A stretch of DNA of 64,000 nt from a virus (Duplodnaviria; Heunggongvirae; Uroviricota; Caudoviricetes): the IMG/VR virus record IMGVR_UViG_3300031998_000029, positions 15,666 through 79,665 of that record, one strand, 5' to 3'. Made by a program: the position numbers and the translations under genes. Below are positions 8,138 through 46,913 of this stretch, piece by piece. Below the pieces are notes generated by a model. The model was not told the origin of the DNA. It searched no databases and saw nothing but the letters and a program-made list of their open reading frames with translations. Within the stretch, counting starts at the first letter, position 1. Each line of letters starts with the position of its first letter.

Positions 8138-8146
8138 TGATAGGTA

Positions 8147-8386: not shown

Positions 8387-8396
8387 GGAGCTGCAT

Positions 8397-16466: not shown

Positions 16467-16480
16467 AAAGGAGAGATAAT

Positions 16481-19033: not shown

Positions 19034-19139
19034 AAATCAAATGGAGTTTTTGTGAAACTTATAGACAAGATTTGTTAAGCGCGGTTTGGGAGTGCATAAC
19101 CACATACATGGAAATGTAAGTCAAAAAGGGGGTCAAAGG

Positions 19140-20443: not shown

Positions 20444-20486
20444 TCAATGGGTTTAAGCTAGTTTGATGAAAAACTATAGTGTACAT
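20444..20486 (+). promoter_or_regulatory. Conserved promoter-like motif (second copy of GCTCAATGGGTYT..TTTGATGA..CTATAGTGTA)
   Basis: Near-identical ~45 nt motif at 11689-11727 upstream of ORF 11796; here upstream of the iscS-like gene; TATAGT -10-like hexamer. Confidence 0.45.
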
Positions 20487-20499
20487 TTCTTTGGTGGTG

Positions 20500-23641: not shown

Positions 23642-24439
23642 TTATTCGCCACAGACGAAGTAGTCCGGGGTAGATATTTTCTTCTCTAATATTACCCTGC
23701 CTAGACACCTGACAGATATATTACTATCTGCTCCGATGTATACATTCGTTTCTTTAAGCAAAGGGTTAGACGAAATCAAGGAAAGGTTTCTTGACGAGTC
23801 GATATAGTATTGCTTGCAATACATTGCTCCGTCGACATCAAATATTCCAACGTCCCCGATATTCATCGGGGCATTTTTCTCGACATACACGATATCTCCG
23901 TCGGATATATACGGAAGCATGCTGTCGCCCTGAATTCTTACGGCAAAATTCGCAGTTTCCGGGATACCGTTGTCGAAGGGGATCATTTCGAACTCATCGT
24001 TTTCCAAAGGAAAAGACGCGCCGGCAGCAGACGGTGTAGAATAGAGTGGTATGTATCTGCGAGTATCAGACTTTTTCCCTTTCGTCGAAGTCTTAAAGTC
24101 ACCCCTCTTTTTTTCAAGAGAGCAGACGGAGCTCACAATTTGTTTGCCCAACCTGTCCAGCAGTCTGTAGTCAAATAATAGTCTCAGTTCGTCTGTTGTT
24201 AATGACAGTTCGTCAAATCCATTGTTCTCTATGCCAAGAATATCGTCAACAGATACACCAAATACATGAGACAATGAGACCAGAGCGTCCAAAGACGGTT
24301 TCTTGGCGGCGGATTCCCAGTTTCTTATCGTAACAACAGACACACCGACCTTTCGACTGAGCTCATGCTGTGTCATTGAGGCGCGTTCTCTTAACATCCT
24401 GATTCTGTTACTCAACGTCATTTTGTTATTATCTCCCAA
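23642..24439 (-). CDS. CI/LexA-like phage repressor (XRE-family HTH + S24 peptidase domain)
   Basis: HTH QHELSRKVGVSVVTIRNWES; C-terminal GDSMLPYISDGDIVYVE with Ser and downstream YCKQYY Lys dyad. Confidence 0.85.
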   Translation of the reverse strand: MGDNNKMTLSNRIRMLRERASMTQHELSRKVGVSVVTIRNWESAAKKPSLDALVSLSHVFGVSVDDILGIENNGFDELSLTTDELRLLFDYRLLDRLGKQIVSSVCSLEKKRGDFKTSTKGKKSDTRRYIPLYSTPSAAGASFPLENDEFEMIPFDNGIPETANFAVRIQGDSMLPYISDGDIVYVEKNAPMNIGDVGIFDVDGAMYCKQYYIDSSRNLSLISSNPLLKETNVYIGADSNISVRCLGRVILEKKISTPDYFVCGE

Positions 24440-25136: not shown

Positions 25137-25568
25137 TTGGACAGCAATTGCAGACACCCGAAAATAGGAGAAATCTATCTTATGCGCTTCGGCGGAAGCG
25201 GCAGCGAGCAGAGCGGATTGAGACCCGGGCTTGTTTTCCAGAACAATACGGGAAATCTCCACAGTCCGAACATAATTGCGCTGCCGCTGACAAGCGCCAT
25301 CAAAAAGACAGAGCAGCCTACCCATGTACTCATACCGTCCGACGAAACCGGGCTTCTTAAAGACAGCATTGTTCTCTGTGAAAACCCGGAAAGAATGTCT
25401 AAGGATAAGATCGGCGCTTACATAACGACGATCCCGGATAAGTATATGGGCGATGTCGCCGCAGCCAGTATAATTGCGTCTTCTGCAATTTCTTTCTTAG
25501 ATCAGGAGACACTTATAGACTTATGGCGCAAAGCGGTTTCTCTCAACGCAGTTCGAAAAACTGCGTGA
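25137..25568 (+). CDS. MazF/PemK-family toxin-like protein (CcdB/MazF fold)
   Basis: TTG start after ggaagga and a TGtTATAAT extended -10; KIGEIYLMRFGGSGSEQSGLRPGLVFQNN...IIALPLTSAIKK...VLIP matches the MazF/PemK N-terminal pattern. Confidence 0.55.
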   Translation: MDSNCRHPKIGEIYLMRFGGSGSEQSGLRPGLVFQNNTGNLHSPNIIALPLTSAIKKTEQPTHVLIPSDETGLLKDSIVLCENPERMSKDKIGAYITTIPDKYMGDVAAASIIASSAISFLDQETLIDLWRKAVSLNAVRKTA

Positions 25569-25591
25569 TACATATAAAAAGGAGGGCTGTT

Positions 25592-26539
25592 ATGTATAAT
25601 GCTGTTTTAAAAGAGGAGTTTATAAAAACCCAAACAAGTGTCTCCGTAAGAACCGCATATAAACATCTGTTTGAAGCCATAGAGAAATTTGAAAGAGAGT
25701 GGGGCGCAGATATCTGCACAAGAACGCCGGAGGAACTCAGACCGGTAATGGATGATATATTGGGTGTGACCAGATACGGCAACAGAATGAGAACCGGTCT
25801 CTTAAAAAAGTACGCTTTATGGTGTATGGAAAACAATGTCCCCGGGGCTTGCAAGGGCGTTTTTGAAGTCGATCTGTCAAACGTAAGTAAGATGCGGACA
25901 CAGACCGTTAAAAACCCCGCACACCTGCAAGCTTATCTTAACGTCCTGTTTGGCCCGGAAAAAGACGAAGGAACAGACAACGCATTAAGATGCTTTTTCT
26001 GGCTTGCCTACGGAGGATTGCTTGAAGAAGATGCCATCAAGGTAACAGCAAAAGATGTAGACCTTGTGAATATGGTGTTTAGATTCAACGGTGAAGAGTA
26101 TCCCATATACAGAGAGGCGGTACCGTGTTTTAGGAACTGTGCGACGTTGACTCAGTTTGCTTTAAAATACCGTAACGGAACCGTATATAAAGACAGATGC
26201 CTCGGAGACAGTTTGTTAAGGCGTACCTCCTTTCCAGATAAGGATATAGTAGGAATAAGATCTCAGGTTTCAAAAGCAGTCACTACAGCATATAAGTCCG
26301 GCAAAACCGATATATGTCTGAGCTACTTTAAGGCGTGGCTGTCCGGAGTGTTTTATCGGACATACATTGCCGAGAGTATGGGCATAGCTCCGGACTTTAC
26401 AAACCCGGTCGCAAAACTGATGCAGAACATATCATACTCTCTGGATAACACAAGGGCGTCCATTAGCTCGTACCGAAATTATAAGGCAAAATGGTACTTA
26501 AACGATTATGAACAATGGAAAACAACGCTGATAGTATAA
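25592..26539 (+). CDS. hypothetical protein; degenerate tyrosine-recombinase-like fold (box I Arg replaced)
   Basis: NALRCFFWLAYGGLLEEDAIKVTAKDVDL resembles integrase box I but TG-R is GG-L; no HxxR box II. Confidence 0.3.
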   Translation: MYNAVLKEEFIKTQTSVSVRTAYKHLFEAIEKFEREWGADICTRTPEELRPVMDDILGVTRYGNRMRTGLLKKYALWCMENNVPGACKGVFEVDLSNVSKMRTQTVKNPAHLQAYLNVLFGPEKDEGTDNALRCFFWLAYGGLLEEDAIKVTAKDVDLVNMVFRFNGEEYPIYREAVPCFRNCATLTQFALKYRNGTVYKDRCLGDSLLRRTSFPDKDIVGIRSQVSKAVTTAYKSGKTDICLSYFKAWLSGVFYRTYIAESMGIAPDFTNPVAKLMQNISYSLDNTRASISSYRNYKAKWYLNDYEQWKTTLIV

Positions 26540-26624: not shown

Positions 26625-26699
26625 CGGGATGTCGCCAAGCGGTAAGGCACGGGATTTTGGCTCCCGCATTCGTCGGTTCGAACCCGACCATCCCAGCCA
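26625..26699 (+). tRNA. tRNA-Gln (anticodon TTG) with C1:A72 mismatch
   Basis: Close to Firmicutes tRNA-Gln: D gcc-aagcggtaa-ggc, AC cggga-ttttggc-tcccg, T gtcgg-ttcgaac-ccgac, acceptor cgggatg/catccca, G73, CCA encoded; preceded by tataat. Confidence 0.75.
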
Positions 26700-31583: not shown

Positions 31584-32435
31584 ATGTCTAACAAAAATCT
31601 AATCAAAACAACCATAGCTATTACTTGTATAGTGCTTGCCATCATATTTTTCGCAAGCTGCTCTGTCGTTGTCGGTGCAGGACACACCGGAGTAGTTTCG
31701 ACATTTGGCCGCATCAGTTCCGATGTGCTTCAGGAGGGTTTCCATTTGAAAGCTCCCTGGCAGAGAGTTCAGAAGATGGACAACCGTATCGTCAAGCTTG
31801 AAGTCGCAACAGAAGCTTTTAGTTCAGACCTTCAGACAGTTTCGGTTAATCTCGCTGTTAATTATAGAGTGGACACCACCATGTCCTACTATATTATCAA
31901 GAATGTCGGTAAGCACTTCGAGGATGTTTTGATTACGCCGACTGTAAACGAAGTTCTCAAGTCTATTATTGCACACTACACGGCAGAGCAGTCGATAACC
32001 AATCGTGTCACTATCTCAGAATCCATTATTGAAGGATTAAACGGCAAGCTCAATCAAAACGGTATCTATGTATCCGATATAAACATCATTGACTTTGATT
32101 TCAGTGATACATATATTCAGGCAATCGAAGCCAAGCAGGTTGCAGAACAGCAGAAGCTGAAGGCGTTGATTGAGCAGGAGCAGCTCACCATGGAAAAGAG
32201 CGCTCAGGCAGAACGAGATATTATCGCAGCGGAAGCGGCGCTTGAAGTTTCTAAAATTGAGGCAGAAGCAGTTGAGTTCGCGGGCAGAAAAGAAGCCGCC
32301 GCGAACAAAGCGATTGCCGAAAGTATCACGCCGGAGCTTGTAGAGTATTACAAAATCCAGAGATGGGATGGCGCGTTACCTCATATCACGGGTATGGACA
32401 CCATTATCACCATGTCTGAAACTGATAAGCAGTAG
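31584..32435 (+). CDS. SPFH/band-7 (prohibitin/HflC-like) membrane protein
   Basis: N-terminal TM, SPFH core and C-terminal coiled coil AEQQKLKALIEQEQ... Confidence 0.7.
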   Translation: MSNKNLIKTTIAITCIVLAIIFFASCSVVVGAGHTGVVSTFGRISSDVLQEGFHLKAPWQRVQKMDNRIVKLEVATEAFSSDLQTVSVNLAVNYRVDTTMSYYIIKNVGKHFEDVLITPTVNEVLKSIIAHYTAEQSITNRVTISESIIEGLNGKLNQNGIYVSDINIIDFDFSDTYIQAIEAKQVAEQQKLKALIEQEQLTMEKSAQAERDIIAAEAALEVSKIEAEAVEFAGRKEAAANKAIAESITPELVEYYKIQRWDGALPHITGMDTIITMSETDKQ

Positions 32436-32606: not shown

Positions 32607-32979
32607 TTCTAAATATAGATTTATTTATGGAGATGATCGCATTCTTTATTATTCTGACGCGGCTTTAAGGTACGCAGTTGATAGGTGCCTAGAACGTGAC
32701 CGTTATATAGTCGGCATCACGGTACCCTGGGGGAAGAGAAACGAAGTTTCTGAAAAACTGCTCTCAATGGCAAAGAACGTTGCCAGATATCGTACAACAA
32801 ACTTCCGATTTGAAATAATGTTTGAGAATGGGAGTATAATTCAGTATTTTCCTCCCTCTGAAGAAAGTCGTGGACGTGCGTTACACCTACTGATTGTTAG
32901 TAAAGACATAGATGACGATCTGTTACGAGATGTATTTATACCAATGGAACGAAGATATTATAAAAACGATGTTTTATAA
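32563..32979 (+). CDS. hypothetical protein (start uncertain; overlaps tRNA-like element)
   Basis: No in-frame ATG before ~32767; may be shorter or non-coding at the 5' end. Confidence 0.3.
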   Translation: MQAKAYVWCKSTSAFSKYRFIYGDDRILYYSDAALRYAVDRCLERDRYIVGITVPWGKRNEVSEKLLSMAKNVARYRTTNFRFEIMFENGSIIQYFPPSEESRGRALHLLIVSKDIDDDLLRDVFIPMERRYYKNDVL

Positions 32980-32989
32980 GGAGAGACAA

Positions 32990-33427
32990 ATGAGCAAAAT
33001 TTACCTTGCACATCCCATTACGGGATTAAACACGAAAAATGTATTTGATTATTATGATGGAATTTCCTATGCGTTAGAGGAGAGGCATATCATTTATTCT
33101 CCAATGACTGGGAAAGACTATCTGCGAAACGAAACGACCATGCAGAAAAGCTATGAAGATTATCCAATTAGCACAGGACACGCAATCTTCGAGCGAGATA
33201 TGTGGATGGTGTCATCTGCCGACATTGTTCTTTGCGACTTCACAGGAGCGCAGACCGTTTCTATTGGATGTTGCTTTGAAATGGCAGTGGCGGCGAAACT
33301 TGGCAAACACACAATTGTTGTTATGGAGGACGGAAATCCACATGACCACCGCTTTATACGTGAAGCCGCTGATATTGTATTTCCTACAATAGAGGATGCA
33401 ATCGCTTATATCAAATTATTGCCTTAA
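32990..33427 (+). CDS. nucleoside 2-deoxyribosyltransferase-like family protein
   Basis: ATG 32990 after aaggagag; MSKIYLAHPITG... and catalytic-Glu region SIGCCFEMAVAAKLGKHTIVV resemble the NDT family. Confidence 0.5.
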   Translation: MSKIYLAHPITGLNTKNVFDYYDGISYALEERHIIYSPMTGKDYLRNETTMQKSYEDYPISTGHAIFERDMWMVSSADIVLCDFTGAQTVSIGCCFEMAVAAKLGKHTIVVMEDGNPHDHRFIREAADIVFPTIEDAIAYIKLLP

Positions 33428-34900: not shown

Positions 34901-37900
34901 ATGTACCACTGTCACACGGAATATAGTCTGCTTGATAGCTGCGCCAAATATACTGAATACTTAGACTTGGCAAAACGAGACGGCTCAAAAGCCATATCAT
35001 TCAGCGAACATGGAAAACCGATGAATTGGACGGAGAAGTGGGCGGCATGCAAAAAAGTCGGCATGCGATATATACACTCGGTAGAAATCTATCTTACCGA
35101 GTCTCTTGAGGAAAAAGTCCGCGATAATTACCACACGGTATTGATGGCTAGAAATATGGACGGCGTACAAGAACTCAACTCTTTGGTGAGCAAATCCTGT
35201 GACGAAGATCATTTCTATTATACAAACAGAATAAGCTTCGACGAGTTTTTGGGGATGTCCGAAAACATTATATCGACTAGCGCTTGTCTGGCGTCGCCGT
35301 TGAATAAGCTCCCCGACGACCATCCGAGGTATATGGAACTCGCTCGAAAGTATGACTTTCTCGAAGTCCAAGCTCATAATCATCCTGAGCAGATCGAATT
35401 TAACAAGCGTCTCGCAAAACTTTCAAAACAAATCGGGAAACCGTTGATTGCGGGAACAGATACGCATAGCCCGAGCAAATATAAAGCCGAGTGCAGATCA
35501 GCTCTACTTTCTGCAAAACACAAATCATACGGCGATGAAGATGCTTTCGACCTTACATATAAAACATACGATGAGCTTGCGGAAATGTTCCGCAGACAAG
35601 GGGCTTTGTCAGAAGAGGATTATGTAACAGCTATCGAAAACACCAACCTCCTTTACGACATGACAGAAGATATCGAGTTAGATACTTCTATAAAATACCC
35701 GATACTCTATGGCTCTAGAGAAGCCGATTCACAGAAGTTTACTGAGACAGTCGAACGACTGTTTAAAGAAAAGCTTGACAAGGGTATTATTCCAAAAAGT
35801 CAGGAGCAAGCTTTCCGAGTTGCCATTGACGAAGAGATGCGGGTTTTTCAAAAGCTGCATATGGACGGGTTCATGCTCTCGATGAGCGAAATAATCAGAT
35901 GGTGTAAAGAGCAAGGAATGGCGATAGGAACCGCAAGAGGTTCTGTAGGCGGTTCAAGAGTCGCTTATGTGACCGATATCATAGATTTGAATCCCGAAAC
36001 ATGGCACACAGTATTCTCGCGCTTCGCAAATGAATACCGAGAAGAAATCGGTGATATTGATATTGACTGCGTTGAATCTGATAGACCGGCAATTTTCAAA
36101 TATATTACCGGACGATTCGGTACGGATAAGACAGCGCGTGTTGCATCGTTCGGCACAATGCAGGCAAAGGGAGTTATCGATGATGTTGGGAGACATCTTG
36201 CGATCAAATGGAAAGAGTCACATCCGAACAATGAGGATAACCCGTGGTCTTTGCCGAACATTGCAAAAATAAAAACCGAGTTTGATTCAGATCCGGAAAA
36301 GACCAAGCAAAAGTATCCGGAACTCTTCTATTATTTCGACGGTTTGTTCGACACAAAAATATCTCAGTCAGTGCATCCGGCGGGAATGGTAATTAGTCCG
36401 ATCACACTTGCCGACAATTTTGGGGTGTTTGATAAGGATAATGAAAACTGTCTGATGCTTGATATGGAAAACATTCACGACTTTACCGGTCTTGCCAAGT
36501 ATGATTTTCTTATTTTGAAAACAGTTCAGGTAATACGTGATACTTGTCGTTATCTTAATGCCCCATATCCACAAACCCACGAAATAAACTGGGATGATGA
36601 AAATGTGTGGAAAGACATGGTAAGAAGCCCTTCGGGTATATTCCAGTTCGAAGGCAGTTTTGCATTCGACAGTTTGAAAAAGTTTAAACCCAAAAGTATT
36701 TTTGATATGTCAATAGTTACCGCCTGTATACGTCCGTCAGGATCGTCGTATAGAGAACAGCTCCTTGCAAGAGTTCCACATAAAAACCCATCAGAACTCA
36801 TTGATAAACTACTTTCGGACAACCTTGGATATCTAATATATCAGGAAGACACCATCAAGTTTTTACAGGAGATATGTGGGCTTTCAGGAAGCGAAAGCGA
36901 TAACATACGCAGAGCAATCGGGCGAAAACAAAAGGAAAGGCTCGACGCGGCTCTCCCATCAATACTCGAGGGTTATTGCAGAAAGTCGCCGCAGCCACGA
37001 GAGACTGCCGAAAGCGAAGCAAAAGAGTTTCTTCAGATAATCGAAGACAGCGCCAGCTATCAATTTGGTTATAACCATAGCGTTGCGTATTGTCTTCTCG
37101 GATATCTTTGTGCCTATTACCGCTATCATCATCCGATAGAATTTATAACGTCATTTTTGAACAACGCGGCGAACGAAGACGATATCAGAAACGGAACTGA
37201 ATACGCAAGTCGGGTAGGCATCAAGATCACGATGCCCAAATGGGGGCTGTCGAAAAGTGAATACTTTTTCGACAGGGACAAAAACATCATCGCAAAGGGT
37301 CTGACTTCAATAAAGTACATGAGCGACGGTATTGCGGAAGACCTGTACAATCTCGCTCATCAGAATACATACACTACATTCATGGACGTTCTCTTTGATC
37401 TTGACAAAAAGACTTCGCTTAACACAAGGCAACTTGACATTCTTATCAAGCTTGACTTCTTCTCGGAGTTTGGAAATCAGCGCGAGTTGCTTCGCATAAC
37501 GGATATGTTTTATGAAACTTTCAAAAAGGGCGAAGTAAAAAAACTCAGCAAAGAAAAGGTTGATGGCACTCCGCTTGAGCCTATAGTCAAAAAATACTCC
37601 ATCGGTGTGACAAAGTCGGGGGGCGTTGCCAAGAGCTACACGATACTCGATGTGACGTCCATCCTGCGAGAAGTTGAAAAGGCAATCAAAGATATCCACA
37701 TGGACGACCTTGGAGATGTTTTAAAGGTCAAAAACTTTGTCGATGTCATGGGGTATGCCGGATATGTTTCCGGTAAAGAAGAAGACAGAAGAAAACTGTA
37801 TGTAATGGATGTATTCCCTGTGTGCAGAAAAAGAGACGGAAAGCAGTTCGCTTATTCAATCATAACGAAGTCGATAGGCAGCGGGAAAGAAGCGAGGTTC

Positions 37901-38023
37901 ACTGTTTACAACAGGGTTTACAACACAAATCCTATAAAGGAAGGAGATATCGTGTATTGTAAGTCATACGAAAGAGACGGGTCGTATTTCAGAATGACTG
38001 AATTCGACAAAATCTATTGTTAG
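34901..38023 (+). CDS. dnaE: DNA polymerase III alpha subunit-like replicative polymerase (DnaE-type, N-terminal PHP domain)
   Basis: MYHCHTEYSLLDSCAKY PHP motif; 1040 aa; RBS aaaggagg. Confidence 0.85.
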   Translation: MYHCHTEYSLLDSCAKYTEYLDLAKRDGSKAISFSEHGKPMNWTEKWAACKKVGMRYIHSVEIYLTESLEEKVRDNYHTVLMARNMDGVQELNSLVSKSCDEDHFYYTNRISFDEFLGMSENIISTSACLASPLNKLPDDHPRYMELARKYDFLEVQAHNHPEQIEFNKRLAKLSKQIGKPLIAGTDTHSPSKYKAECRSALLSAKHKSYGDEDAFDLTYKTYDELAEMFRRQGALSEEDYVTAIENTNLLYDMTEDIELDTSIKYPILYGSREADSQKFTETVERLFKEKLDKGIIPKSQEQAFRVAIDEEMRVFQKLHMDGFMLSMSEIIRWCKEQGMAIGTARGSVGGSRVAYVTDIIDLNPETWHTVFSRFANEYREEIGDIDIDCVESDRPAIFKYITGRFGTDKTARVASFGTMQAKGVIDDVGRHLAIKWKESHPNNEDNPWSLPNIAKIKTEFDSDPEKTKQKYPELFYYFDGLFDTKISQSVHPAGMVISPITLADNFGVFDKDNENCLMLDMENIHDFTGLAKYDFLILKTVQVIRDTCRYLNAPYPQTHEINWDDENVWKDMVRSPSGIFQFEGSFAFDSLKKFKPKSIFDMSIVTACIRPSGSSYREQLLARVPHKNPSELIDKLLSDNLGYLIYQEDTIKFLQEICGLSGSESDNIRRAIGRKQKERLDAALPSILEGYCRKSPQPRETAESEAKEFLQIIEDSASYQFGYNHSVAYCLLGYLCAYYRYHHPIEFITSFLNNAANEDDIRNGTEYASRVGIKITMPKWGLSKSEYFFDRDKNIIAKGLTSIKYMSDGIAEDLYNLAHQNTYTTFMDVLFDLDKKTSLNTRQLDILIKLDFFSEFGNQRELLRITDMFYETFKKGEVKKLSKEKVDGTPLEPIVKKYSIGVTKSGGVAKSYTILDVTSILREVEKAIKDIHMDDLGDVLKVKNFVDVMGYAGYVSGKEEDRRKLYVMDVFPVCRKRDGKQFAYSIITKSIGSGKEARFTVYNRVYNTNPIKEGDIVYCKSYERDGSYFRMTEFDKIYC

Positions 38024-38427: not shown

Positions 38428-38631
38428 ATGAAGGCAGAAAACAAATGCAGTATGTGCGGTAAAACATTCGATATTTGGGATGAGCAGGAGGATTTTTCGA
38501 TAGAAAAACAGTTGGGCTACGGAACAAAGTACGACGGACACAGAGTAAGCGTACGGTTATGCTGCGAGTGTATGGAAAAAATCATAGATCAGTGCAAGAT
38601 CTCTCCTTTGGGTGAACGCATATGGGAGTAG
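38428..38631 (+). CDS. Zn-ribbon protein
   Basis: CSMCGK...CCECMEK. Confidence 0.5.
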   Translation: MKAENKCSMCGKTFDIWDEQEDFSIEKQLGYGTKYDGHRVSVRLCCECMEKIIDQCKISPLGERIWE

Positions 38632-39164
38632 AGATTCTGAAACACCCGACCGAAGACGACTGGATACTTTGTAAAAAATGCACGCTTGTAACCATATCCA
38701 AGGATTCTAACACCCCGCCGACAAGCGAATGGAAGGTTAAGCTCTTAAAAGCAAACCATTCTCCGATACGAACGCTGCAGTTCTGTTTCAGACTTACTGA
38801 TATACCTTACTGGGTCTCGGTGCATCTTGCGCGACATGTTCATGCAACACCGTTCGTATCTACGCAAAGAAACGACCGTCAAAATAAATATGACCGCGCA
38901 AACGCACCGCAGGACGCCCCTGTTACTATGTGCTGGTATATGAATGCTGAAGAGCTTATAACGGTTGCTCATAAGAGGCTGTGTATGCTTGCGGCCAAAG
39001 AAACCAGGGATATAGTCAGAGAAATATGCGACAGAGTGATAGAAACAAACCCGGAGTTTGAGAGTCTGCTCGTTCCGAACTGTGTTTATCGCGGAGGAAT
39101 CTGTGATGAATTCAATTGTTGCGGGAAGAACAGACAGTACAGAAAAAAGGAGGCGGATGATTGA
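38622..39164 (+). CDS. ThyX-like (flavin-dependent thymidylate synthase fold) protein, short/divergent
   Basis: IRTLQFCFRLTDIPYWVSVHLARHVHATPFVSTQRNDRQNKY aligns with the ThyX core [30 protein letters not shown]; third Arg of RHR is Val; 180 aa. Confidence 0.55.
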   Translation: MGVEILKHPTEDDWILCKKCTLVTISKDSNTPPTSEWKVKLLKANHSPIRTLQFCFRLTDIPYWVSVHLARHVHATPFVSTQRNDRQNKYDRANAPQDAPVTMCWYMNAEELITVAHKRLCMLAAKETRDIVREICDRVIETNPEFESLLVPNCVYRGGICDEFNCCGKNRQYRKKEADD

Positions 39165-39694
39165 GAGTTTTAGCAATATCCGGACATGCTCAGAACGGAA
39201 AAGACACCATAGCCGGTCTGCTTGCAAGTGAATTGCAAGCCAGAGGGCTAAGAGTGCTGATAGCACATTATGCGGATCTGCTGAAATACATATGCAGAAC
39301 GTTTTTCGGCTGGGACGGAAATAAAGACGAAAACGGAAGACACATCCTACAGTATGTGGGAACCGACGTTATCAGGAAACAGTCTCCTGATTTCTGGGTC
39401 GATTTTATATCTTCAATCCTAAAGTATTTCGGAGATAACTGGGATTACTGCATAATCCCAGATTCGAGATTTCCGAACGAAATAGACAAACTGAAATCTG
39501 ACGGGTTTGATGTTACTCATTTAAGGGTTGTAAGAAGCAACTTTATAAGCCCATTAACCGAGGAACAACAAATGCACCCATCTGAAACCGCGCTCGACGA
39601 TATAAAAGCGGACTTTTATATAGAGAACAACGGAAGCATAGCAGATCTTAAATCAAAGATAGAAGCATGGGTGGAGGAAAATGTTTATGAGTAA
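39161..39694 (+). CDS. deoxynucleoside monophosphate kinase (T4 gp1-like)
   Basis: P-loop ISGHAQNGKDT; LQYVGTDVIR and YCIIPDSRFPNEID...VTHLRVVR match T4 gp1 blocks. Confidence 0.75.
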   Translation: MRVLAISGHAQNGKDTIAGLLASELQARGLRVLIAHYADLLKYICRTFFGWDGNKDENGRHILQYVGTDVIRKQSPDFWVDFISSILKYFGDNWDYCIIPDSRFPNEIDKLKSDGFDVTHLRVVRSNFISPLTEEQQMHPSETALDDIKADFYIENNGSIADLKSKIEAWVEENVYE

Positions 39695-40331
39695 ACGAAG
39701 CAGACTTAAAAGGAGTAATGTTGAAATTGACCTTGAACGTCTTCTTGTGGAGAACGGATTCGTTGACGAGTATTACTATCTCGATGCTCTTAAGCAACGG
39801 AAGCTTTTTCTGGAAGAAGAAATCAGTCAAGAGACAGTTTCCGAGATAGTAAAACACATTTTAAGATTCAACAAGGAGGACGAAGCAATCCCCGTAGCGG
39901 AGAGAAAACCCATTATATTATATCTCTCTTCCAACGGCGGAGATGTCGATCCGGGTTTTGAATTAATAGACGTAATCTTACACAGCAAGACGCCGGTTTA
40001 CACAGTAAATCTCGGATACTGGTACAGCATGGGATTCCTTATCGGAATCGCAGGACACAAGAGATATGCGTCTTCCAATTCCAAATGTCTTATGCACGAC
40101 GGCTCTCAGTTTATTTACAACAGCGGGTCTAAGGTACAAGATCAGTTGGAGTTTCAGAAGAAGATCGAGGCGCGTGTAAAACGTCATGTTCTTAACTGCA
40201 GTAAATTAACCGAAGAGGAATACAACGGCAAACTCCGGGTAGAGTGGTATCTGTTCGCAGACGAAGCAAAGGAAAAAGGATTCATAGATTATATTATCGG
40301 CGAAGACTGCGAACTTGACGAAATCATTTGA
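39681..40331 (+). CDS. ClpP-like serine protease (S14 family)
   Basis: ILYLSSNGGDVDPGFELIDVI...LGYWYSMGFLIGIAG...CLMHDGS parallels the ClpP Ser/His blocks. Confidence 0.7.
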   Translation: MFMSKRSRLKRSNVEIDLERLLVENGFVDEYYYLDALKQRKLFLEEEISQETVSEIVKHILRFNKEDEAIPVAERKPIILYLSSNGGDVDPGFELIDVILHSKTPVYTVNLGYWYSMGFLIGIAGHKRYASSNSKCLMHDGSQFIYNSGSKVQDQLEFQKKIEARVKRHVLNCSKLTEEEYNGKLRVEWYLFADEAKEKGFIDYIIGEDCELDEII

Positions 40332-40339
40332 GGAGTTAT

Positions 40340-41053
40340 ATGGCTACAAAGAAGAAACAAACGACGGACTCTTCGTCTCCCGAAGCTCCGCGAGAAATAG
40401 AAAGAGATTTATTCTACGGCCTTTATTTAGACGACGAACAGCTTGCGTTTGCAAACGCGATCTGGAATCCCGATATAGATATAGTTTTCTGTAATTCATG
40501 CGCCGGTACGGGCAAAACAACAATAGCTACAGGGGTTGCAAATCTTCTCGTTCAATATAAATTCTTCGACAATATTGTTTATATCATGTCGCCTTATGGC
40601 GAGAAGAAACAAGGGTGGCTTCCCGGAACAATTACAGAGAAGTCCTCGGTATATTTTGAAGCCTTTTATCAAGCTCTCATGAACTGCGACATCAATCCGC
40701 ACACATCCGTAAATACGGAAAGCATGGTTAATCAGAAGAACGGGACGGGATTTATAACCTGTATTACCGACACATTCCTTCGCGGAACCAACCTTGACAA
40801 CGTGGTTGTCATTGTCGATGAAGCACAGAATTATACCGTTCCGCAACTCAAGAAAGTTCTTACGCGAATCGGCAAAAAAGCAAAAGTAATAGTCATAGGT
40901 CACGAACTTCAGTGCGATCTTGACGATAACAAAGTAAGCGGATTTATAAAGTATATCGAACACTTCAGAGATAAAGAACGCGCCGCAGTATGTTCGCTTT
41001 CCACCAATCACAGAGGATGGATAAGTCAGCATGCGGACGAGCTTGAGGGGTAG
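40340..41053 (+). CDS. phoH: PhoH-like ATPase
   Basis: Walker A CAGTGKTT, Walker B VIVDEAQN; ATG 40340 after ggagttat. Confidence 0.8.
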   Translation: MATKKKQTTDSSSPEAPREIERDLFYGLYLDDEQLAFANAIWNPDIDIVFCNSCAGTGKTTIATGVANLLVQYKFFDNIVYIMSPYGEKKQGWLPGTITEKSSVYFEAFYQALMNCDINPHTSVNTESMVNQKNGTGFITCITDTFLRGTNLDNVVVIVDEAQNYTVPQLKKVLTRIGKKAKVIVIGHELQCDLDDNKVSGFIKYIEHFRDKERAAVCSLSTNHRGWISQHADELEG

Positions 41054-41275
41054 GTGAGAAGTATGACGCCTATGCAAGCAATTAAGGCAAAGTGCGCCGA
41101 GTGTTCAGAGTCCGCAAGAGAGGTAAAATATTGCCCTGTAAAAGACTGCGCTCTATATCCTTTCAGACTGGGACGCAACCCAAACATAAAGCGAAGTTAT
41201 ACAGAGGAACAAAAGCAGGAAATGAGAGACAGGCTCGCCGCTGCCAGAGACGCGAAAATCGCCAAGGAACAGTAA
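41054..41275 (+). CDS. Zn-finger-containing small protein
   Basis: CAECSES...CPVKDC. Confidence 0.45.
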   Translation: MRSMTPMQAIKAKCAECSESAREVKYCPVKDCALYPFRLGRNPNIKRSYTEEQKQEMRDRLAAARDAKIAKEQ

Positions 41276-41393
41276 CAAACCATTAGCAAAAGTCTAATGG
41301 AATCTCTCATGACTTAAAAACCTTGCGTACTGATATTATCAGACAAACCTACATAAAACATAGCGAAATATCTAATGAAAAGGGGACGAAAAA

Positions 41394-41957
41394 ATGAAAG
41401 CGTTAACGGTACTTGTGGATATGGATGACGTTCTTGAAAACCTGTGCGACACCTGGCTCTCTGTGCTAAACGAGCGTCACGGGACAAGCGTTGGCGTAGA
41501 AGATATACAAGAATGGGATATAACAAAGTTTTTCCCATCACTTACAAGAAAGGAAGTTTTTCGTCCCCTTGAAGAAAAGGATACATGGATCAGGGTAAAA
41601 CCCTGTCAGGGAGCCTGTGAGTATACAAAGAAAATGATTGAAGACGGGCATAGAGTTATTGTCGTAACCGCTTCAAATCCCGGTTCGAAGGCTGTGAGTT
41701 ATAAATTTAAATATGTACTGTTTAAATACTTCCCGCATTTTTCATATAAAGATGTGGTAATCGCCACTCAAAAACAGCTTATAAAGGGCGATGTTTTAAT
41801 TGACGACAATCCTGCTAATCTGGAAAATGCGGATTACTTCGGTATACTTGTCAACAGACCACACAACCGGAACTATAAAATACAATCAGGCAGGATGAAG
41901 CGTGCGGACACATGGGATGAAATTTACCGTCTCATCTGCAAGCTCGCACAGGATTAA
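41394..41957 (+). CDS. 5'(3')-deoxyribonucleotidase (HAD superfamily)
   Basis: N-terminal VLVDMDDVLEN DxDx(V/T) motif. Confidence 0.65.
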   Translation: MKALTVLVDMDDVLENLCDTWLSVLNERHGTSVGVEDIQEWDITKFFPSLTRKEVFRPLEEKDTWIRVKPCQGACEYTKKMIEDGHRVIVVTASNPGSKAVSYKFKYVLFKYFPHFSYKDVVIATQKQLIKGDVLIDDNPANLENADYFGILVNRPHNRNYKIQSGRMKRADTWDEIYRLICKLAQD

Positions 41958-41968
41958 AGGAGTGATTT

Positions 41969-42178
41969 ATGAGAGAGATTATATTGTACTCGACGCACTG
42001 CCCCAGGTGCTGGGTGCTTGAACGCAAGCTCAACGATAAAGGAGTGTCTTATAATACAGTAGACTCTGAAGAAGAGATACTCTCGATGGGAATTGAAGAG
42101 GTTCCGGTTCTGAGCGTTGACGGTGAGCTCATGGAGTTTTCAAAGGCAGTGCAGTGGGTGAACGCTTTGGAGGAATAA
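41969..42178 (+). CDS. nrdH: NrdH-like glutaredoxin
   Basis: CPRC redox motif in a 69 aa thioredoxin-fold protein, directly upstream of nrdD. Confidence 0.7.
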   Translation: MREIILYSTHCPRCWVLERKLNDKGVSYNTVDSEEEILSMGIEEVPVLSVDGELMEFSKAVQWVNALEE

Positions 42179-44098
42179 ATGAACATCAACATAGACTTAA
42201 AGCGGAATTTCGTTAATGCATATAACGCAATGCAGAGCCAGTACGGAGAAGAAATGGCCGCGTTAAATGGATTTTCCGGCAATCAGCTTAGCTACACAGA
42301 CTTTATAGATAATTTTATTGACTCGGACACAGTGGCGGATGCATCTGTGGACGGCAATGCAAATGTTGGGCAAAAGGATATAGTTACTCTCGTGAATGAA
42401 ATGCCTAAGCCCCACCAAAAGCTTCTTGCTTTTAATAAAGTTTTCTACGAAATAAATAAAAAATATGGATTCAAGGCCGCAAACGACTGGCTCAAGAACG
42501 AATGGGACGGTCATTTATACATGCATGACGCCAATACATGCACATTCGTTTCGTATTGCTTTGCTTATGATCTGAAAGATCTGGCAGAAAAAGGTCTGTT
42601 CTTTATTGAAAACTTTAACTACGAACCGCCGAAACACCTTACAACATTCATAGACTTCGTCAAAGAGTATGTATCGTACTGTTCCAACAGAACAAGCGGT
42701 GCGGTAGGTCTGCCAAACATAATTCCTTACATGTATTATTTCTGGAGCAGAGACGTCAAAAGAGGATATTTTACTGAGACGCCAGAGAAATATGCAAAGC
42801 AGAACATTCAACGAGTGTTATATGCTCTTAACCAGCCGTATACAAGGAACGGCATTCAAAGCGCTTTTACGAATTTTTCGATATTTGATCATCCTTATCT
42901 TGAGGCTTTATTCGGAGGTTCTGTGTTCCCAGACGGAACATACATGATAGACGAAATAGAGGGCATAATGAGTTTCCAAAAAATGTACCTGGAAACGATG
43001 TCTGAAATTCGTGCGAAGAATATGATGACCTTCCCTGTCAATTCCATTTCGTTACTGAGACAGAACGGTAAGTTTGTAGACGAGGAGTTTGCCAGATATG
43101 CGTGCGAGCATAATCGCAAGTGGAACGACAGCAACTTATTTATAGACTCTTCAGTAACAAGCCTGTCCAACTGCTGCCGTTTGAAATCAAATATTGAAGA
43201 CCTCGGATATTTTAATTCCATTGGAGGTACAGCACTTAAGGTAGGATCGGTAAAAGTAAGCACCGTTAATCTTGCAAGACTCGCTCTTGAAAACAGAACA
43301 GAGACAGAGTATATAGATGCGCTTAAGAAGATCGTGTGGTTAGATATGCAGGCTCTTGACTGCGTAAGAAGTATTATCCATCGCAATGTCGATAAGGGCT
43401 TACTTAAAAACTTCTCTCTCGGGTTAATAGACTTTGAACATCTTTATAATACAATAGGATTCATTGGCATATACGAGACAATGAAGACGTTCGGATATAC
43501 TCGTGTAGACGAACTTGGCAACACTTATTATACGGAAGACGCAGAAAGATTCGGCAAGATGATATTTGATACATTACACGAGGTAAAGGCCGAGTTTGCA
43601 AGAGATAAAGACTATCAAATTAATTGCGAACAGATACCCGGTGAAACCGCAGCCGCAAAATTAATGAAAAAGGATATGTTCTTTTATCCGAACTCAGTAG
43701 TTAGAGATCTGCCGTTATATGGAAATCAGTTCATACCCCTTGGCATCAAAACTACCTTACAGGAGAGAATACGTATTGCTGCAATGTTTGACAGATTTTG
43801 TAATGGAGGCAGTATACTTCATGCAAATATTGAAGCTCCTTTCAGTACACCTGAGCAGGCGTGGGACATGCTTAACTATATCGCCGATCAGGGCGTTACA
43901 TATTTTGCATTCAATACTAAGATTCAGGCGTGTAAGCACAATCACGCATTCTTCGGAAAGGTTTGTCCAGAGTGCGGAGAACCCGTGCATACTGAATATA
44001 CGAGAATAGTTGGCTTCTATACCCCCATCAAAACTTATTCAAAAGAAAGAAAGGCAGAATACTTAATGCGAGAGTGGGAGAACTTAAATGCTGATTAA
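42179..44098 (+). CDS. nrdD: anaerobic ribonucleoside-triphosphate reductase (class III)
   Basis: 639 aa; C-terminal Cys cluster CKHNH...CPECGEP and glycyl-radical-like TRIVGFYTP. Confidence 0.85.
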   Translation: MNINIDLKRNFVNAYNAMQSQYGEEMAALNGFSGNQLSYTDFIDNFIDSDTVADASVDGNANVGQKDIVTLVNEMPKPHQKLLAFNKVFYEINKKYGFKAANDWLKNEWDGHLYMHDANTCTFVSYCFAYDLKDLAEKGLFFIENFNYEPPKHLTTFIDFVKEYVSYCSNRTSGAVGLPNIIPYMYYFWSRDVKRGYFTETPEKYAKQNIQRVLYALNQPYTRNGIQSAFTNFSIFDHPYLEALFGGSVFPDGTYMIDEIEGIMSFQKMYLETMSEIRAKNMMTFPVNSISLLRQNGKFVDEEFARYACEHNRKWNDSNLFIDSSVTSLSNCCRLKSNIEDLGYFNSIGGTALKVGSVKVSTVNLARLALENRTETEYIDALKKIVWLDMQALDCVRSIIHRNVDKGLLKNFSLGLIDFEHLYNTIGFIGIYETMKTFGYTRVDELGNTYYTEDAERFGKMIFDTLHEVKAEFARDKDYQINCEQIPGETAAAKLMKKDMFFYPNSVVRDLPLYGNQFIPLGIKTTLQERIRIAAMFDRFCNGGSILHANIEAPFSTPEQAWDMLNYIADQGVTYFAFNTKIQACKHNHAFFGKVCPECGEPVHTEYTRIVGFYTPIKTYSKERKAEYLMREWENLNAD

Positions 44099-44564
44099 AG
44101 GAATCATAGACGAAGACTTTGTAAATTATAGAATACCATCAATGTTCATCAATACTGCCTTCTGTGATTTTAAATGCGAAAAAGAAAGCGGGGTTCGCTG
44201 TTGCCAAAACAGCGACCTCGCTCACCAAAAATGTATTAATCTTGATACAGACGCAATCATTCAGAGATATTTAGATAATCACATAACGAGAGCGATCTGC
44301 TTCGGAGGACTCGAACCTTTCGAGCAGTACGATGAACTGCTTGAGTTTGTAGCTAAATTCAGGAATGGGTATGATTGCAACGATCCGATTGTAATATACA
44401 CCGGCTACAATAAAACCGAGATTTCATTTCAGGTAGAGATGCTCAGATTATACGGCAACATCATCATAAAGTTCGGACGCTTTATTCCGAATCAGGAGTC
44501 GCACTACGACGAAGTGCTCGGCGTTAATCTCGCCTCCCTAAATCAATACGCAGAAAAACTGTAA
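44088..44564 (+). CDS. nrdG: anaerobic RNR activating protein-like (radical SAM, atypical Cys spacing)
   Basis: 158 aa directly after nrdD; FCDFKCEKESGVRCC cluster rather than canonical CxxxCxxC. Confidence 0.5.
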   Translation: MLIKGIIDEDFVNYRIPSMFINTAFCDFKCEKESGVRCCQNSDLAHQKCINLDTDAIIQRYLDNHITRAICFGGLEPFEQYDELLEFVAKFRNGYDCNDPIVIYTGYNKTEISFQVEMLRLYGNIIIKFGRFIPNQESHYDEVLGVNLASLNQYAEKL

Positions 44565-44578
44565 TCTAGGAGTAAAAA

Positions 44579-44776
44579 ATGCATATCAAAGTTAATCCAG
44601 ATGAAGAGTATGTCCGCGAGGTCAGAAAGAAATTAAAGGATAATAGCGGATATTGCCCCTGTAAGCTCAAGAAAACACCCGAAACAAAATGTATATGTAA
44701 AGAGTTTACCGACATGTGTGAACGCGGAGAAAGCGGCATGTGCGGCTGCGGTTTATACATAGCAACAAAGGAATGA
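44579..44776 (+). CDS. ferredoxin:thioredoxin-reductase catalytic-subunit-like Cys protein (CPC..CIC..C..CGC)
   Basis: CPCKLKKTPETKCICKEFTDMCERGESGMCGCG resembles the FTR-C CPC-Xn-CPC-Xn-CHC Fe-S/disulfide motif. Confidence 0.4.
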   Translation: MHIKVNPDEEYVREVRKKLKDNSGYCPCKLKKTPETKCICKEFTDMCERGESGMCGCGLYIATKE

Positions 44777-44789
44777 ACGGAGGGTTATA

Positions 44790-45227
44790 TTGAAGATTAA
44801 ACTTAAAAAGTTAAGAGAAGATGCCGTCATGCCTATTCGCGGATCTAAGCATGCCGCCGGAGCAGACTTATACGCATGTCCCGAAGAGCAGATTATTATA
44901 ATACCCCCTAATGAAACAGTCAAAATACCAACAGGAATCGCAATAGAAACGCCGAGAGGTTATTTCGGGGCTATAGTTGCGAGAAGCGGTCTTGCGACTA
45001 ACTTTGGATTACGCCCCGCAAATTGTATAGGCGTGTTGGATGAAGATTACCGTGGGGAAGTGATAGTTGCTCTGCATAACGACTCCAAGGCAGACCGGGA
45101 AATACGCAAGGGTGATAGAATCGCACAGCTTGTTATGATGCCGTATCTGCCCATAGAATTTGTGGAGGCGGATGAGCTTAGCGAAACAGTCAGGGGCGAG
45201 GGGGGATTTGGTTCGACGGGAAAGTAA
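44790..45227 (+). CDS. dut: dUTP diphosphatase
   Basis: AGADL, RSGLA, GVLDEDYRGE, RIAQLV, GGFGSTG dUTPase motifs. Confidence 0.95.
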   Translation: MKIKLKKLREDAVMPIRGSKHAAGADLYACPEEQIIIIPPNETVKIPTGIAIETPRGYFGAIVARSGLATNFGLRPANCIGVLDEDYRGEVIVALHNDSKADREIRKGDRIAQLVMMPYLPIEFVEADELSETVRGEGGFGSTGK

Positions 45228-45277
45228 AGTATATAACCGAGAATAGTGGATATAATTGTAGCGAAGGTGATAATGAT

Positions 45278-45415
45278 ATGATCGTTAGCTGTTCAATAAA
45301 CGGCGTGCAAATGAGTATTGAAGAAATAAAGAAGATCAAAATCCACTCGGAAGTTATAGATCGCGCGGTTGAGTCAGTAAATAAAAAACTGAGAAAGCCC
45401 GCAATTCCTTGTTGA
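45278..45415 (+). CDS. possible small ORF (45 aa)
   Basis: ATG after gaaggtga. Confidence 0.2.
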   Translation: MIVSCSINGVQMSIEEIKKIKIHSEVIDRAVESVNKKLRKPAIPC

Positions 45416-45440
45416 GCCATTTCTAACATGGTATAATATA

Positions 45441-45473
45441 GGCAGGGCTTAACAGCTCTGCCTTATTTTTTTA
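45441..45473 (+). terminator. Rho-independent terminator (preceded by TGgTATAAT extended -10-like box at 45426-45434)
   Basis: ggcag-ggcttaacagct-ctgcc + ttattttttta. Confidence 0.6.
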
Positions 45474-45491: not shown

Positions 45492-46913
45492 GTGGCAAAA
45501 TCAAAAATGAGAAAACCAAAAGAGACCAAAGCTACGGAGAGGGTTGTGATAGCTAAATACATCAGAGTGTCAACAGACAAACAAAGAGAAGAGGGTTACT
45601 CTGTTGATATTCAAAAAGAAAGACTGGACAGTTATGCAAGATCTCTCTTTCCGGAATCAACATACGATGTCGAATACAGGGAATATGTTGATGACGGGTT
45701 TAGCGGCGGTTCCCTTGAAAGACCACAAATGACGCAACTCATTGAAGATGTTAAAAACGGAGTAATAACCCATGTCATTGTAATGAAACTCGACAGGTTA
45801 AGCAGATCGCAGAAAGACACGCTTTATTTGATTGAGGATATATTCCTCCCAAATAACGTGGCATTTATTTCGATGGGGGAGAGCTTTAACACAGACACTC
45901 CTTTCGGAAGAGCCGTTGTAGGAATACTATCTGTGTTCGCTCAGCTCGAACGAGAGAACATTTTTGAGCGAACACGCAGCGGAATGCAGAAGAGAGTAGA
46001 GCTCGGCTACTGGCCGGGAGGAGGCGCCATTCCCTTCGGTTACGATTACGACGCCAATCAGGGCATACTCATTCCCAACGGAAACGCCGACACAGTACGC
46101 ACTGTGTTCGAACTGTATACAAGAGGTTATTCGGCTCAGTATATAGCCAATCTTCTAGGACTTAAGTACGATAAGCTCGTAAACAATATACTGACTAGGA
46201 AAACATATACCGGTGCAATTGTCTATAATAGCATAGAGTATAAAGGAAAACATCAGCCGATTATCTCAGAAGAGTTGTATGAGAAAGTACAGGCGATGAT
46301 TCAGGACAGATCATCAAAAAGGTTTGTTTCAGCAACGACCAACCTGCTTACCGGCATGGTATACTGCGGCAGATGCGGAGCAAAGATGCGATATATCAAA
46401 TGGGGCAAGCACGGAAGGTCGAGATTGATGTGCTACTCACAGGAAAAGTCCAAACCATATCTTGTCAAAGACCCTGACTGCGAAAATGAAAAGCCTTGGG
46501 CGGACGATGTAGAAGACACCGTAATTAAACTACTTTTCGAACGAGCGCATGTCAACGAATGTAATAATACGAATGAAGAACAGGCCGACCCGGTTAAGAT
46601 GCTTCAGTCCCAAAGAGTTTCCCTTGTCAACAAACTAAAAAGACTATATATTATCTACGCAGAAGGCGACGATGCTATTACACAAGTCATAAACGAGACA
46701 AAGGAAGAAGTAGCGAAAATAGAAAAGAGAATCGAAGGAGAGATTGCTAAGAGAGCGACCACTATTATCGAGCAAGACATTCAAGAGAAACTGTCCTCTC
46801 TCGAAGAATCGTGGCAATATTTAGATGTATCAGAAAAACAAAATATAGTCCGATCTCTTATAAACAAAGTCACGATAACCGGACATCGTATTCACATTGA
46901 TTTCAAAATTTAA
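45492..46913 (+). CDS. large serine recombinase (phage integrase)
   Basis: N-terminal resolvase domain YIRVSTDKQ (catalytic Ser), DDGFSGG, KLDRLSRS; large C-terminal Cys-containing domain; 473 aa. Confidence 0.9.
   Translation: MAKSKMRKPKETKATERVVIAKYIRVSTDKQREEGYSVDIQKERLDSYARSLFPESTYDVEYREYVDDGFSGGSLERPQMTQLIEDVKNGVITHVIVMKLDRLSRSQKDTLYLIEDIFLPNNVAFISMGESFNTDTPFGRAVVGILSVFAQLERENIFERTRSGMQKRVELGYWPGGGAIPFGYDYDANQGILIPNGNADTVRTVFELYTRGYSAQYIANLLGLKYDKLVNNILTRKTYTGAIVYNSIEYKGKHQPIISEELYEKVQAMIQDRSSKRFVSATTNLLTGMVYCGRCGAKMRYIKWGKHGRSRLMCYSQEKSKPYLVKDPDCENEKPWADDVEDTVIKLLFERAHVNECNNTNEEQADPVKMLQSQRVSLVNKLKRLYIIYAEGDDAITQVINETKEEVAKIEKRIEGEIAKRATTIIEQDIQEKLSSLEESWQYLDVSEKQNIVRSLINKVTITGHRIHIDFKI

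Follow-up and report, generated by a model that had tools for sequence, protein, structure and literature searches.

The window analysed here was a stretch of 64,000 nucleotides from a Caudoviricetes phage (IMG/VR record IMGVR_UViG_3300031998_000029, positions 15,666 to 79,665), and within it a nucleotide-metabolism operon was found to encode a 180-amino-acid (aa) protein of the ThyX fold, here called mini-ThyX. The operon itself was ordinary, and mini-ThyX was an uncharacterised new variant that is clearly linked by evolution to the ThyX of cells, the flavin-dependent thymidylate synthase (FDTS). The analysis shows the fold, family membership, residue conservation, operon context and slot swapping of mini-ThyX. 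On balance the protein probably makes deoxythymidine monophosphate (dTMP), and together with the anaerobic ribonucleotide reductase NrdDG, the dUTPase and a T4 gp1-type deoxynucleoside monophosphate (dNMP) kinase (DNMK) it would form a complete anaerobic route to dTDP.

The AlphaFold2 model of mini-ThyX reached a predicted local distance difference test (pLDDT) of 80. When it was compared with the PDB by Foldseek, the top 50 matches listed were all ThyX (probability 1.0, template modelling (TM) score 0.52-0.66, identity 12-17%), and ThyX proteins were also matched in the viral structure library BFVD. The original prediction, made from the sequence alone, had assigned the protein to the ThyX fold and had named structure prediction as the check, and the model bore this out. 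The fold is that of ThyX in general (PF02511, TIGR02170; Thermotoga maritima TM0449, Helicobacter pylori ThyX and PBCV-1 A674R). In sequence, Pfam Thy1 matched with 33.6 bits against a cutoff of 24.8, over residues 92-144 only, which covered 53 of 191 model positions. The single mini-ThyX sequence found no ThyX match in the PDB; the family profile alone got there, and this profile matched T. maritima ThyX with an E-value (E) of 6e-4. PHROGs held no family for mini-ThyX, and none of the cluster names of its relatives was informative.

The motif of mini-ThyX was FCFRLTDIPYWVSVHLARHVHATPFVSTQR, with the core R71-H72-V73-H-A-T76-P-F-V-S-T81-Q-R83. Set against the ThyX signature RHRxxSxxxxSxR, the first Arg, the His, the S/T and the last Arg were kept and the third Arg was absent. 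Conservation was counted over 101 sequences, comprising 100 family representatives and the query. The Val in place of the third Arg of RHR, to which the original prediction had drawn attention, proved to reflect a family-wide feature: the eight commonest residues at this position (I, V, H, F, L, E, Y and T) made up 92 of the 101, and because the commonest residues are non-Arg throughout the family, RHV is a family trait and no lesion. In the profile alignment to T. maritima ThyX (HMMER), H46, R71-H72, N108 and R119 corresponded to H53, R78-H79, N163 and R174, and S/T81 (101 of 101) and R83 (100 of 101) stood at +10 and +12 from R71, the same as S88 and R90 from R78. Mini-ThyX and ThyX therefore have in common the HxxP-type His (H46), the R-H with which the signature opens, the S/T-x-R spacing, N108 and R119. 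According to a structural review of ThyX/FDTS that describes the contacts of flavin adenine dinucleotide (FAD) and dUMP, the RHR motif binds the phosphates and ribityl of FAD, its third Arg helps to hold the phosphates, and six residues contact dUMP, namely four arginines (the first of RHR, that of S-x-R, the equivalent of R174 and one further upstream), the Ser of S-x-R and a Tyr that acts as a lid (PMC6514825). Four of these six dUMP contacts were kept in mini-ThyX (R71, T81, R83 and R119); the Tyr lid was N84, and no Arg occurred 4-8 residues before R71, where H68 stands. Compared with ThyX, mini-ThyX was without the helical hairpin of ~50 aa, and it had lost R165, the Tyr lid and the last Arg of RHR; it was ~40 to 120 residues shorter, in line with the short length noted in the original prediction. 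By spacing, R92 would match T. maritima R147, an assignment that was dropped because R143 is its counterpart both in hhalign and by the L-P anchor.

Four cysteines (Cys4), C121, C154, C161 and C167, were invariant in 99-101 of the 101 sequences and absent from ThyX. C121 lies two residues past R119, in the helix of the R174 equivalent, and the other three lie in a C-terminal tail that ThyX does not have, giving the spacing C-x32-C-x6-C-x5-C; a C-P dipeptide followed the third cysteine in 42% of the mini forms. The Cys4 site is probably a metal centre (Zn or Fe-S) which ties the C-terminal tail to the active-site helix.

The same cysteine pattern was found in a longer protein. In the related phage locus L096, the slot of mini-ThyX was filled by a 241-aa protein that matched Pfam Thy1 over its full length (125 bits), kept the hairpin and the Tyr after S-x-R, and had W-Y-T-H-L where RHR stands. 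The long Cys4 family to which it belongs (225-241 aa in L096 and L135; e.g. P0349 and P0290) gave 6596 matches, and T-H-L/I together with Cys4 occurred in all 120 sequences inspected, so that, unlike in the mini form, both arginines of RHR were gone. Some members are labelled "FAD-dependent thymidylate synthase" by NCBI (Ruminococcaceae and Clostridia metagenome-assembled genomes, MAGs). In L135 the long form sits in a bacterial chromosome, right after a gene for a 103-aa MazG-type protein (NTP pyrophosphatase); on a 264-kb contig a member right after a small MazG gene had ABC transporters, a GGDEF protein, CobW and PPK2 around it, from which the contig was taken to be a bacterial chromosome. 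The clade was found in chromosomes of gut Clostridia as well as in phages. The comparison of the mini and long families by hhalign (97.7%, E 1.5e-12) aligned all four cysteine columns, and both forms had the R-x-R-x-C helix and the tail P-x-C-x-Y-x-G-x-C-P-E-x3-C-G, with C-P after the third cysteine in the long form. The mini form is therefore a phage version, without the hairpin, that either derives from a ThyX branch of the Clostridia or is its sister, and the Cys4 site is, judged from these alignments, a trait of that branch.

Relatives of mini-ThyX filled more than 3000 clusters at the 90% identity level; at 50% a full HMMER scan found 987, with proteins mostly 170-220 aa long. Almost all traceable copies were on phage contigs. 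One mini-ThyX peptide pattern matched 508 IMG/VR loci. Among 185,579 species genomes five MAG contigs matched a narrow pattern, a count that samples the cellular distribution of the mini form poorly because of the narrow pattern used. Ten GenBank phage records carried mini-ThyX, annotated as hypothetical or as ThyX; the carriers included Clostridium phages vB_CtyS-FA67 and FA70, Thomasclavelia phages TR-TP1 and TP2, Bacteroides phage BS-TP1 and the crAss-like phage cr116_1, and the cultured TR-TP1 and BS-TP1 were reported to be temperate (PMC12694917). Our literature search found no base-composition data for the cultured carriers and no study of Cys4 or shortened ThyX proteins. Neighbours were counted in 83 related IMG/VR loci and included NrdD (34/83), DNA polymerase III (PolIII) alpha (33/83), dUTPase (30/83), ClpP (23/83), primase (21/83) and the deoxyribonucleotidase NT5C (23-28 of 83), while DNMK adjoined mini-ThyX in 16-18. 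This company of NrdD, PolIII alpha, dUTPase and NT5C fits a dTMP-making job, and ThyX keeps like company (dUTPase and ribonucleotide reductase). Searches by tblastn found no ThyA (E. coli query, E <= 1) and no canonical ThyX in the window, in the flanks or in the 83 loci.

Further evidence came from 40 related phage loci that were anchored on ClpP. Their gene order was 67-aa protein, X, (146-aa protein), (DNMK), ClpP, PhoH, NT5C, NrdH, NrdD and NrdG, and X was mini-ThyX in six loci, the long Cys4 ThyX in L096 and a protein of family phrog_6721 in eight loci. This family has at least 8000 relatives and carries no Pfam domain; it gave no match in Pfam or NCBIfam. Its sequence resembled ThyX by eye, but hhalign against the mini family was not significant. 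The AlphaFold model of phrog_6721 (pLDDT 82) matched ThyX structures with probability 1.0 and TM 0.50-0.62, so that by its model phrog_6721 has the ThyX fold; the link to ThyX stands on predicted structure, since the profile comparison was not significant. Like mini-ThyX, phrog_6721 occupies the slot between the 67-aa protein and DNMK/ClpP; unlike mini-ThyX, it has no Cys4 site and shows another signature (ERYHF-DFVSSQSTMHR). No locus with two ThyX-fold types was found when ~137 loci and the window were scanned with three hidden Markov models over 7-10 kb on each side. In gut phages, at least three ThyX-fold families that diverge deeply take turns in a single operon slot.

Two side observations were made at these loci. 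In many relatives, among them L095, L098, L100-L102 and L105, a protein of 144-152 aa stood between the slot and DNMK/ClpP; it was absent from the window and had no Pfam or PHROG match. In L128, the slot after the 67-aa protein held a 528-aa protein that resembled DNA cytosine-C5 methyltransferases by motifs (FxGxG, ENV), and this locus had no ThyX-fold gene.

A replacement was also seen in crAss-like phages. In Bacteroides phage crAss001, gp54 was a canonical ThyX, FVRHRVFSFAQESTRY, which scored 98.2 bits on TIGR02170 (cutoff 87.9); it lay directly after HicA (gp55), and the RNA polymerase genes came behind it. Phage cr116_1 belongs to the same subfamily, and there four small open reading frames (ORFs) separate the orthologue of HicA (78% identity) from a 188-aa mini-ThyX with RHE and Cys4, which the RNA polymerase gene follows; the mini-ThyX takes the position of the canonical ThyX of crAss001. 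Neither ThyA nor canonical ThyX was found by tblastn in cr116_1 (100 of 101 kb) or in Clostridium phage FA67 (whole genome).

From the slot swaps, the crAss-like case and the chromosomal homologue, one conserved job is suggested, the obvious one being to make dTMP from dUMP. That mini-ThyX acts as a thymidylate synthase, uses a flavin and binds metal is inferred. In the dTMP route, NrdD, activated by NrdG and perhaps reduced via the NrdH-like redoxin, would reduce ribonucleoside triphosphates; the dUTPase would turn dUTP into dUMP, which the ThyX-like protein would convert into dTMP; dTMP (and dGMP) would be carried on towards the triphosphate through phosphorylation by the gp1-type kinase, and the NT5C nucleotidase would trim or rebalance the dNMP pool. 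Several points weigh against this reading. Mini-ThyX scored 27.8 bits on TIGR02170, the NCBI equivalog of ThyX, far under the curated cutoff of 87.9, and the long form missed the cutoff too (65-68 bits). In place of the third Arg of RHR the whole family has a hydrophobic residue or His; in the mini family Asn/Asp stands for the Tyr that forms a lid after S-x-R, and Glu/Gln for the R165 equivalent, and the counterpart of T. maritima R147 was uncertain. The helical hairpin was gone, with 8 residues (84-91) in place of ~56 (T. maritima ~91-146), and the secondary structure of the model showed no helices at residues 84-91. The four cysteines are unexplained by it, and a simple supply of dTTP gives no obvious reason for an NT5C next to a thymidylate synthase. 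The slot also takes a very different ThyX-fold family, which could mean diversification of chemistry instead of equivalence, and no assay of a mini or long member of the Cys4 branch was found in the literature.

The original prediction had gone further and compared the operon with the enzyme complement of phages that hypermodify their pyrimidines. The nucleotide operon, the divergent ThyX-like protein and the gp1-type kinase stood, and the link to hypermodification received no specific support. Mini-ThyX would here make another C5 product, for example hm-dUMP (hydroxymethyl-dUMP, formed when water captures the exocyclic methylene intermediate) or methylated dCMP or UMP; the kinase would phosphorylate the modified nucleotide, NT5C and dUTPase would exclude dTMP and dUTP, and a non-canonical pyrimidine would enter the DNA. 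This we consider unlikely. Stated for the slot as a whole, the three ThyX-fold families would not all be plain thymidylate synthases, and at least the mini Cys4 form would use a metal or Fe-S centre and make another C5-substituted pyrimidine nucleotide (e.g. hm-dUMP), or act on another substrate; DNMK and NT5C would channel the product into phage DNA. This is likewise unlikely.

The remodelled active site (R80, Tyr lid, R165 and hairpin lost, Cys4 gained) and the failure at the ThyX equivalog cutoff speak for a modified pyrimidine, as does the turnover of three ThyX-fold families in one slot, which is like that of arms-race genes. In T4, gp1 is the kinase for hm-dCMP, and the window kinase is of the same type. 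Among the closest relatives of the NT5C with a solved structure is mitochondrial dNT-2, an enzyme that prefers dUMP and dTMP, and hmU (hydroxymethyluracil) phages and PBS2 exclude T by a dTMP nucleotidase. ThyX paralogues with altered substrate exist, such as the UMP methylase PolB (PMC5954106), and in phage SP-15 a divergent Thy1-family protein, gp130, was proposed as a putative hm-dUMP synthase, as a hypothesis only (PMC5977210). On the other side, the characterised nucleotide-level hydroxymethylases of phages are all of the ThyA family (PMC8989533), and tblastn detected no enzyme of that type in the window or in any of the 83 related loci; Pfam Thymidylat_synt matched none of the ~45 window ORFs scanned, in which the ThyX-like gene was the sole thymidylate-synthase match. 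The pathways compared were T4 gp42/gp1/gp56 (hm-dC), the SPO1 type (dUMP hydroxymethylase and dTMPase) and thymidine hypermodification via 5-hmdU (PMC8989533). They share with the window a gp1-type kinase, a dUTPase, a deoxynucleotidase and a C5-transferase-like enzyme, all in one operon in the window. They use ThyA-family hydroxymethylases, dedicated dCTPase/dTTPase and glycosyl- or phospho-transferases, none of which was found in the window. The window ORFs scanned held no supported glycosyltransferase or other hypermodification enzyme, and no tailoring enzyme, in a scan that left many small ORFs and the 5-HMUDK and aGPT-Pplase profiles outside.

DNMK accompanied mini-ThyX in only ~20% of the loci. 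To our knowledge, base replacement at the pool level is a trait of virulent phages. The modified-pyrimidine phages compared are virulent and the window phage carries lysogeny genes, with a repressor and recombinases, and TR-TP1 and BS-TP1 are temperate (PMC12694917). Furthermore, the positional replacement of canonical ThyX in crAss-like phages, and the occurrence of the homologous long form as a single chromosomal gene in bacteria, argue for the dTMP reading over a modified pyrimidine.

A Cys4 ThyX-fold protein could also be a uracil methylase with another electron supply ([4Fe-4S] as a relay from ferredoxin or flavodoxin to the flavin in strict anaerobes) or with another class of substrate (uracil in DNA or tRNA), the latter being helped by the more open site without hairpin and Tyr lid. 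It is quite improbable, more so than a modified pyrimidine. The invariance of the cysteines in both forms (99-101 of 101 mini, 120 of 120 long) and the C-P after the third of them in the long form and in part of the mini forms would suit it, and so would the loss of the contacts to the ADP part of FAD (R80 and R165), the anaerobic gut origin of all detected carriers beside NrdD/NrdG, and the NifS-like cysteine desulfurase of the phage. The cysteine spacing fits no standard Fe-S or zinc motif that could be tested, and a purely structural zinc site explains the cysteines equally well; the residues that hold the nucleotide (R71, S/T81, R83 and R119) were kept, which favours a mononucleotide, and the desulfurase lies 17 kb off, with one of the 83 loci having such a gene within 8 kb. 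The notion that the ThyX-like gene is a decayed, non-functional remnant, suggested by its short length, the Pfam match over 53 residues only and the lost signature arginine, is hardly credible and was rejected because it is contradicted by conservation across the family, whose 987 clusters share length and invariant residues, and the model was confident and the gene coupled in translation to both its neighbours.

ThyX is a drug target and the textbook "alternative" essential enzyme, and its RHR signature and size have been treated as defining. A large Cys4 branch drops part of this signature; it comprises thousands of sequences from gut phages and Clostridia, and the phage version deletes a quarter of the protein. 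If the Cys4 forms are active thymidylate synthases, they would define a minimal ThyX core and may reveal a metal-dependent or ferredoxin-linked ThyX that suits anaerobic life; otherwise, they would be candidates for a nucleotide chemistry that is new, in phages that abound in the gut. In addition, phrog_6721, with at least 8000 unannotated phage proteins, gains a predicted fold and a likely role.

The features of the window and of the related loci were collected in the table. Positions 38428-45463 on the plus strand formed a single tightly packed operon, the reading frames of which overlapped or nearly abutted. The nucleotide-metabolism operon described in the original prediction was recovered gene by gene with family matches, the NrdH-like redoxin being just below the cutoff for Glutaredoxin (22.3 bits against 22.9). 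The 67-aa ORF overlapped the start of the ThyX-like gene by 10 nt, and DNMK started with TTG, 7 nt past AAGGAGG, overlapping the ThyX-like stop codon; the ThyX-like gene was translationally coupled at both ends. The gp1-type identity of the kinase was upheld by PDB 1DEK (T4 gp1; E 9.5e-10), the P-loop GHAQNGKDT of the window protein being aligned with GVKRSGKDT. The nearest solved structures of NT5C were 5'(3')-deoxyribonucleotidases, namely PDB 3BWV and mitochondrial dNT-2 (E 1e-8 to 1e-9). The pair of ClpP and PhoH was kept in relatives, and NrdD and its activase NrdG were both present as a class III ribonucleotide reductase system. Homologues of the 67-aa protein, which gave no match in the Pfam scan, stood ahead of the ThyX-fold slot in 13/83 related loci. 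Among the 40 ClpP-anchored loci, 10 had one directly 5' of the slot, and this occurred with each of the three ThyX-fold types; the protein may act as a partner or as a regulator. The 65-aa Cys-rich protein after NrdG had homologues in 11/83 related loci. By eye it was reminiscent of ferredoxin:thioredoxin reductase (catalytic subunit), and as such it could feed the NrdH-like redoxin; this identification was rejected, as neither Pfam nor the PDB gave a match.

Table. Features of the window and of related phage loci (positions in the lower rows, from L095 onwards, are those of the respective locus)
Feature	Position	Strand	Evidence or remark
tRNA-Leu (CAG)	1362-1433	+	
tRNA-Pro (TGG)	12093-12168	+	
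tRNA-Thr (TGT)	12531-12605	+	
tRNA-Thr (CGT)	12695-12770	+	
RNA ligase	14172-15275	+	PHA02142 OB domain, RNA_ligase
Proposed DxD glycosyltransferase	15265-15906		Glyco_tranf_2_3 19.1 bits (cutoff 27)
Metallophosphoesterase	16439-17236	+	phrog_1649
Macro-domain protein	19086-19598	+	
Cysteine desulfurase	20479-21666	+	Aminotran_5 E 2e-81; NifS/DndA/IscS-like
Helix-turn-helix + S24-peptidase repressor	23642-24439	-	lysogeny-type kit, opposite strand
MazF toxin	25137-25568	+	lysogeny-type kit
Tyrosine-recombinase-like protein	25523-26539	+	MrpR N-terminal domain; lysogeny-type kit
tRNA-Gln (TTG)	26625-26699	+	
SPFH/Band 7 protein	31584-32435	+	
Deoxyribosyltransferase-like protein	32912-33427		PF05014 36.2 bits (28.8)
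DNA polymerase III alpha	34901-38023		
67-aa Cys-rich protein (CxxC...CCxC), zinc-ribbon-like	38428-38631	+	phrog_5435 E 3.5e-5
Mini-ThyX, 180 aa	38622-39164	+	Pfam Thy1 33.6 bits
T4 gp1-type dNMP kinase (DNMK)	39161-39694	+	PF21448 59.3 bits (cutoff 27.1); phrog_139 E 1.7e-36
ClpP-family serine protease homologue	39681-40331	+	PF00574 E 8.7e-26
PhoH-like P-loop ATPase	40328-41053	+	PF02562 E 3.6e-32; phrog_170 E 3.8e-50
73-aa protein	41054-41275	+	no match in family scans; in just 2 related loci
NT5C-type 5'(3')-deoxyribonucleotidase	41394-41957	+	PF06941 E 4.6e-30
NrdH/glutaredoxin-like redoxin (CPRC)	41969-42178	+	phrog_22 E 2.5e-6
NrdD, anaerobic (class III) ribonucleotide reductase	42179-44098	+	PF13597 E 1.4e-86
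NrdG, radical-SAM activase of NrdD	44088-44564	+	Fer4_12 E 1.2e-7; phrog_626 "anaerobic RNR small subunit" (RNR, ribonucleotide reductase)
65-aa Cys-rich protein (CPC...CIC...C...CGC)	44579-44776	+	phrog_38239 E 3e-12
Trimeric dUTPase	44790-45227	+	PF00692 E 2.8e-28
Terminator-like hairpin	45440-45463	+	10-bp stem and T run; closes operon before serine recombinase gene
Large serine recombinase	45492-46913	+	just past operon terminator; lysogeny-type kit
phrog_6721 proteins, 200-250 aa (L095, L097, L099, L100, L101, L105, L109, L124)	~5300-6500 each		
Long Cys4 ThyX, 241 aa (L096)	5726-6451		
Long Cys4 ThyX (L135)	8001-8678		
144-152-aa protein (L095)	6035-6475		
144-152-aa protein (L098)	6005-6451		
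528-aa methyltransferase-like protein (L128)	4813-6399		

Upstream (5') of the operon, DNA polymerase III alpha was accompanied by primase, DnaB, an ERF recombinase and a PD-(D/E)XK nuclease, and tail proteins and a lysin lay on the minus strand beyond 47.7 kb. The tail, replication, repressor and recombinase genes mark the region as the module for replication and nucleotide supply in a large phage that carries genes for lysogeny; the phage is probably temperate, with anaerobic gut bacteria as hosts. It has no close annotated relative, since the sole DNA similarity to known phages was one weak match of 166 bp.

Three proteins elsewhere in the window had been cited in support of hypermodification, and they fared differently. 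The cysteine desulfurase was confirmed and scored 377 bits to NifS and 332 to DndA, all under the equivalog cutoffs; its role could be Fe-S assembly, for NrdG and perhaps also the Cys4 ThyX, or sulfur modification. The deoxyribosyltransferase-like protein was retained by its Pfam score, with otherwise weak evidence (PDB match at E 0.034 only), and comparison placed it no nearer to DNPH1-type dNMP hydrolases than to transferases. The DxD glycosyltransferase fell below its cutoff and was not borne out. The RNA ligase, the metallophosphoesterase and the Macro-domain protein formed a cluster, which suggests RNA repair or counter-defence. Five tRNA genes were detected in the window, and an SPFH/Band 7 protein was encoded within the replication module, a protein that crAss001 also has (gp91).

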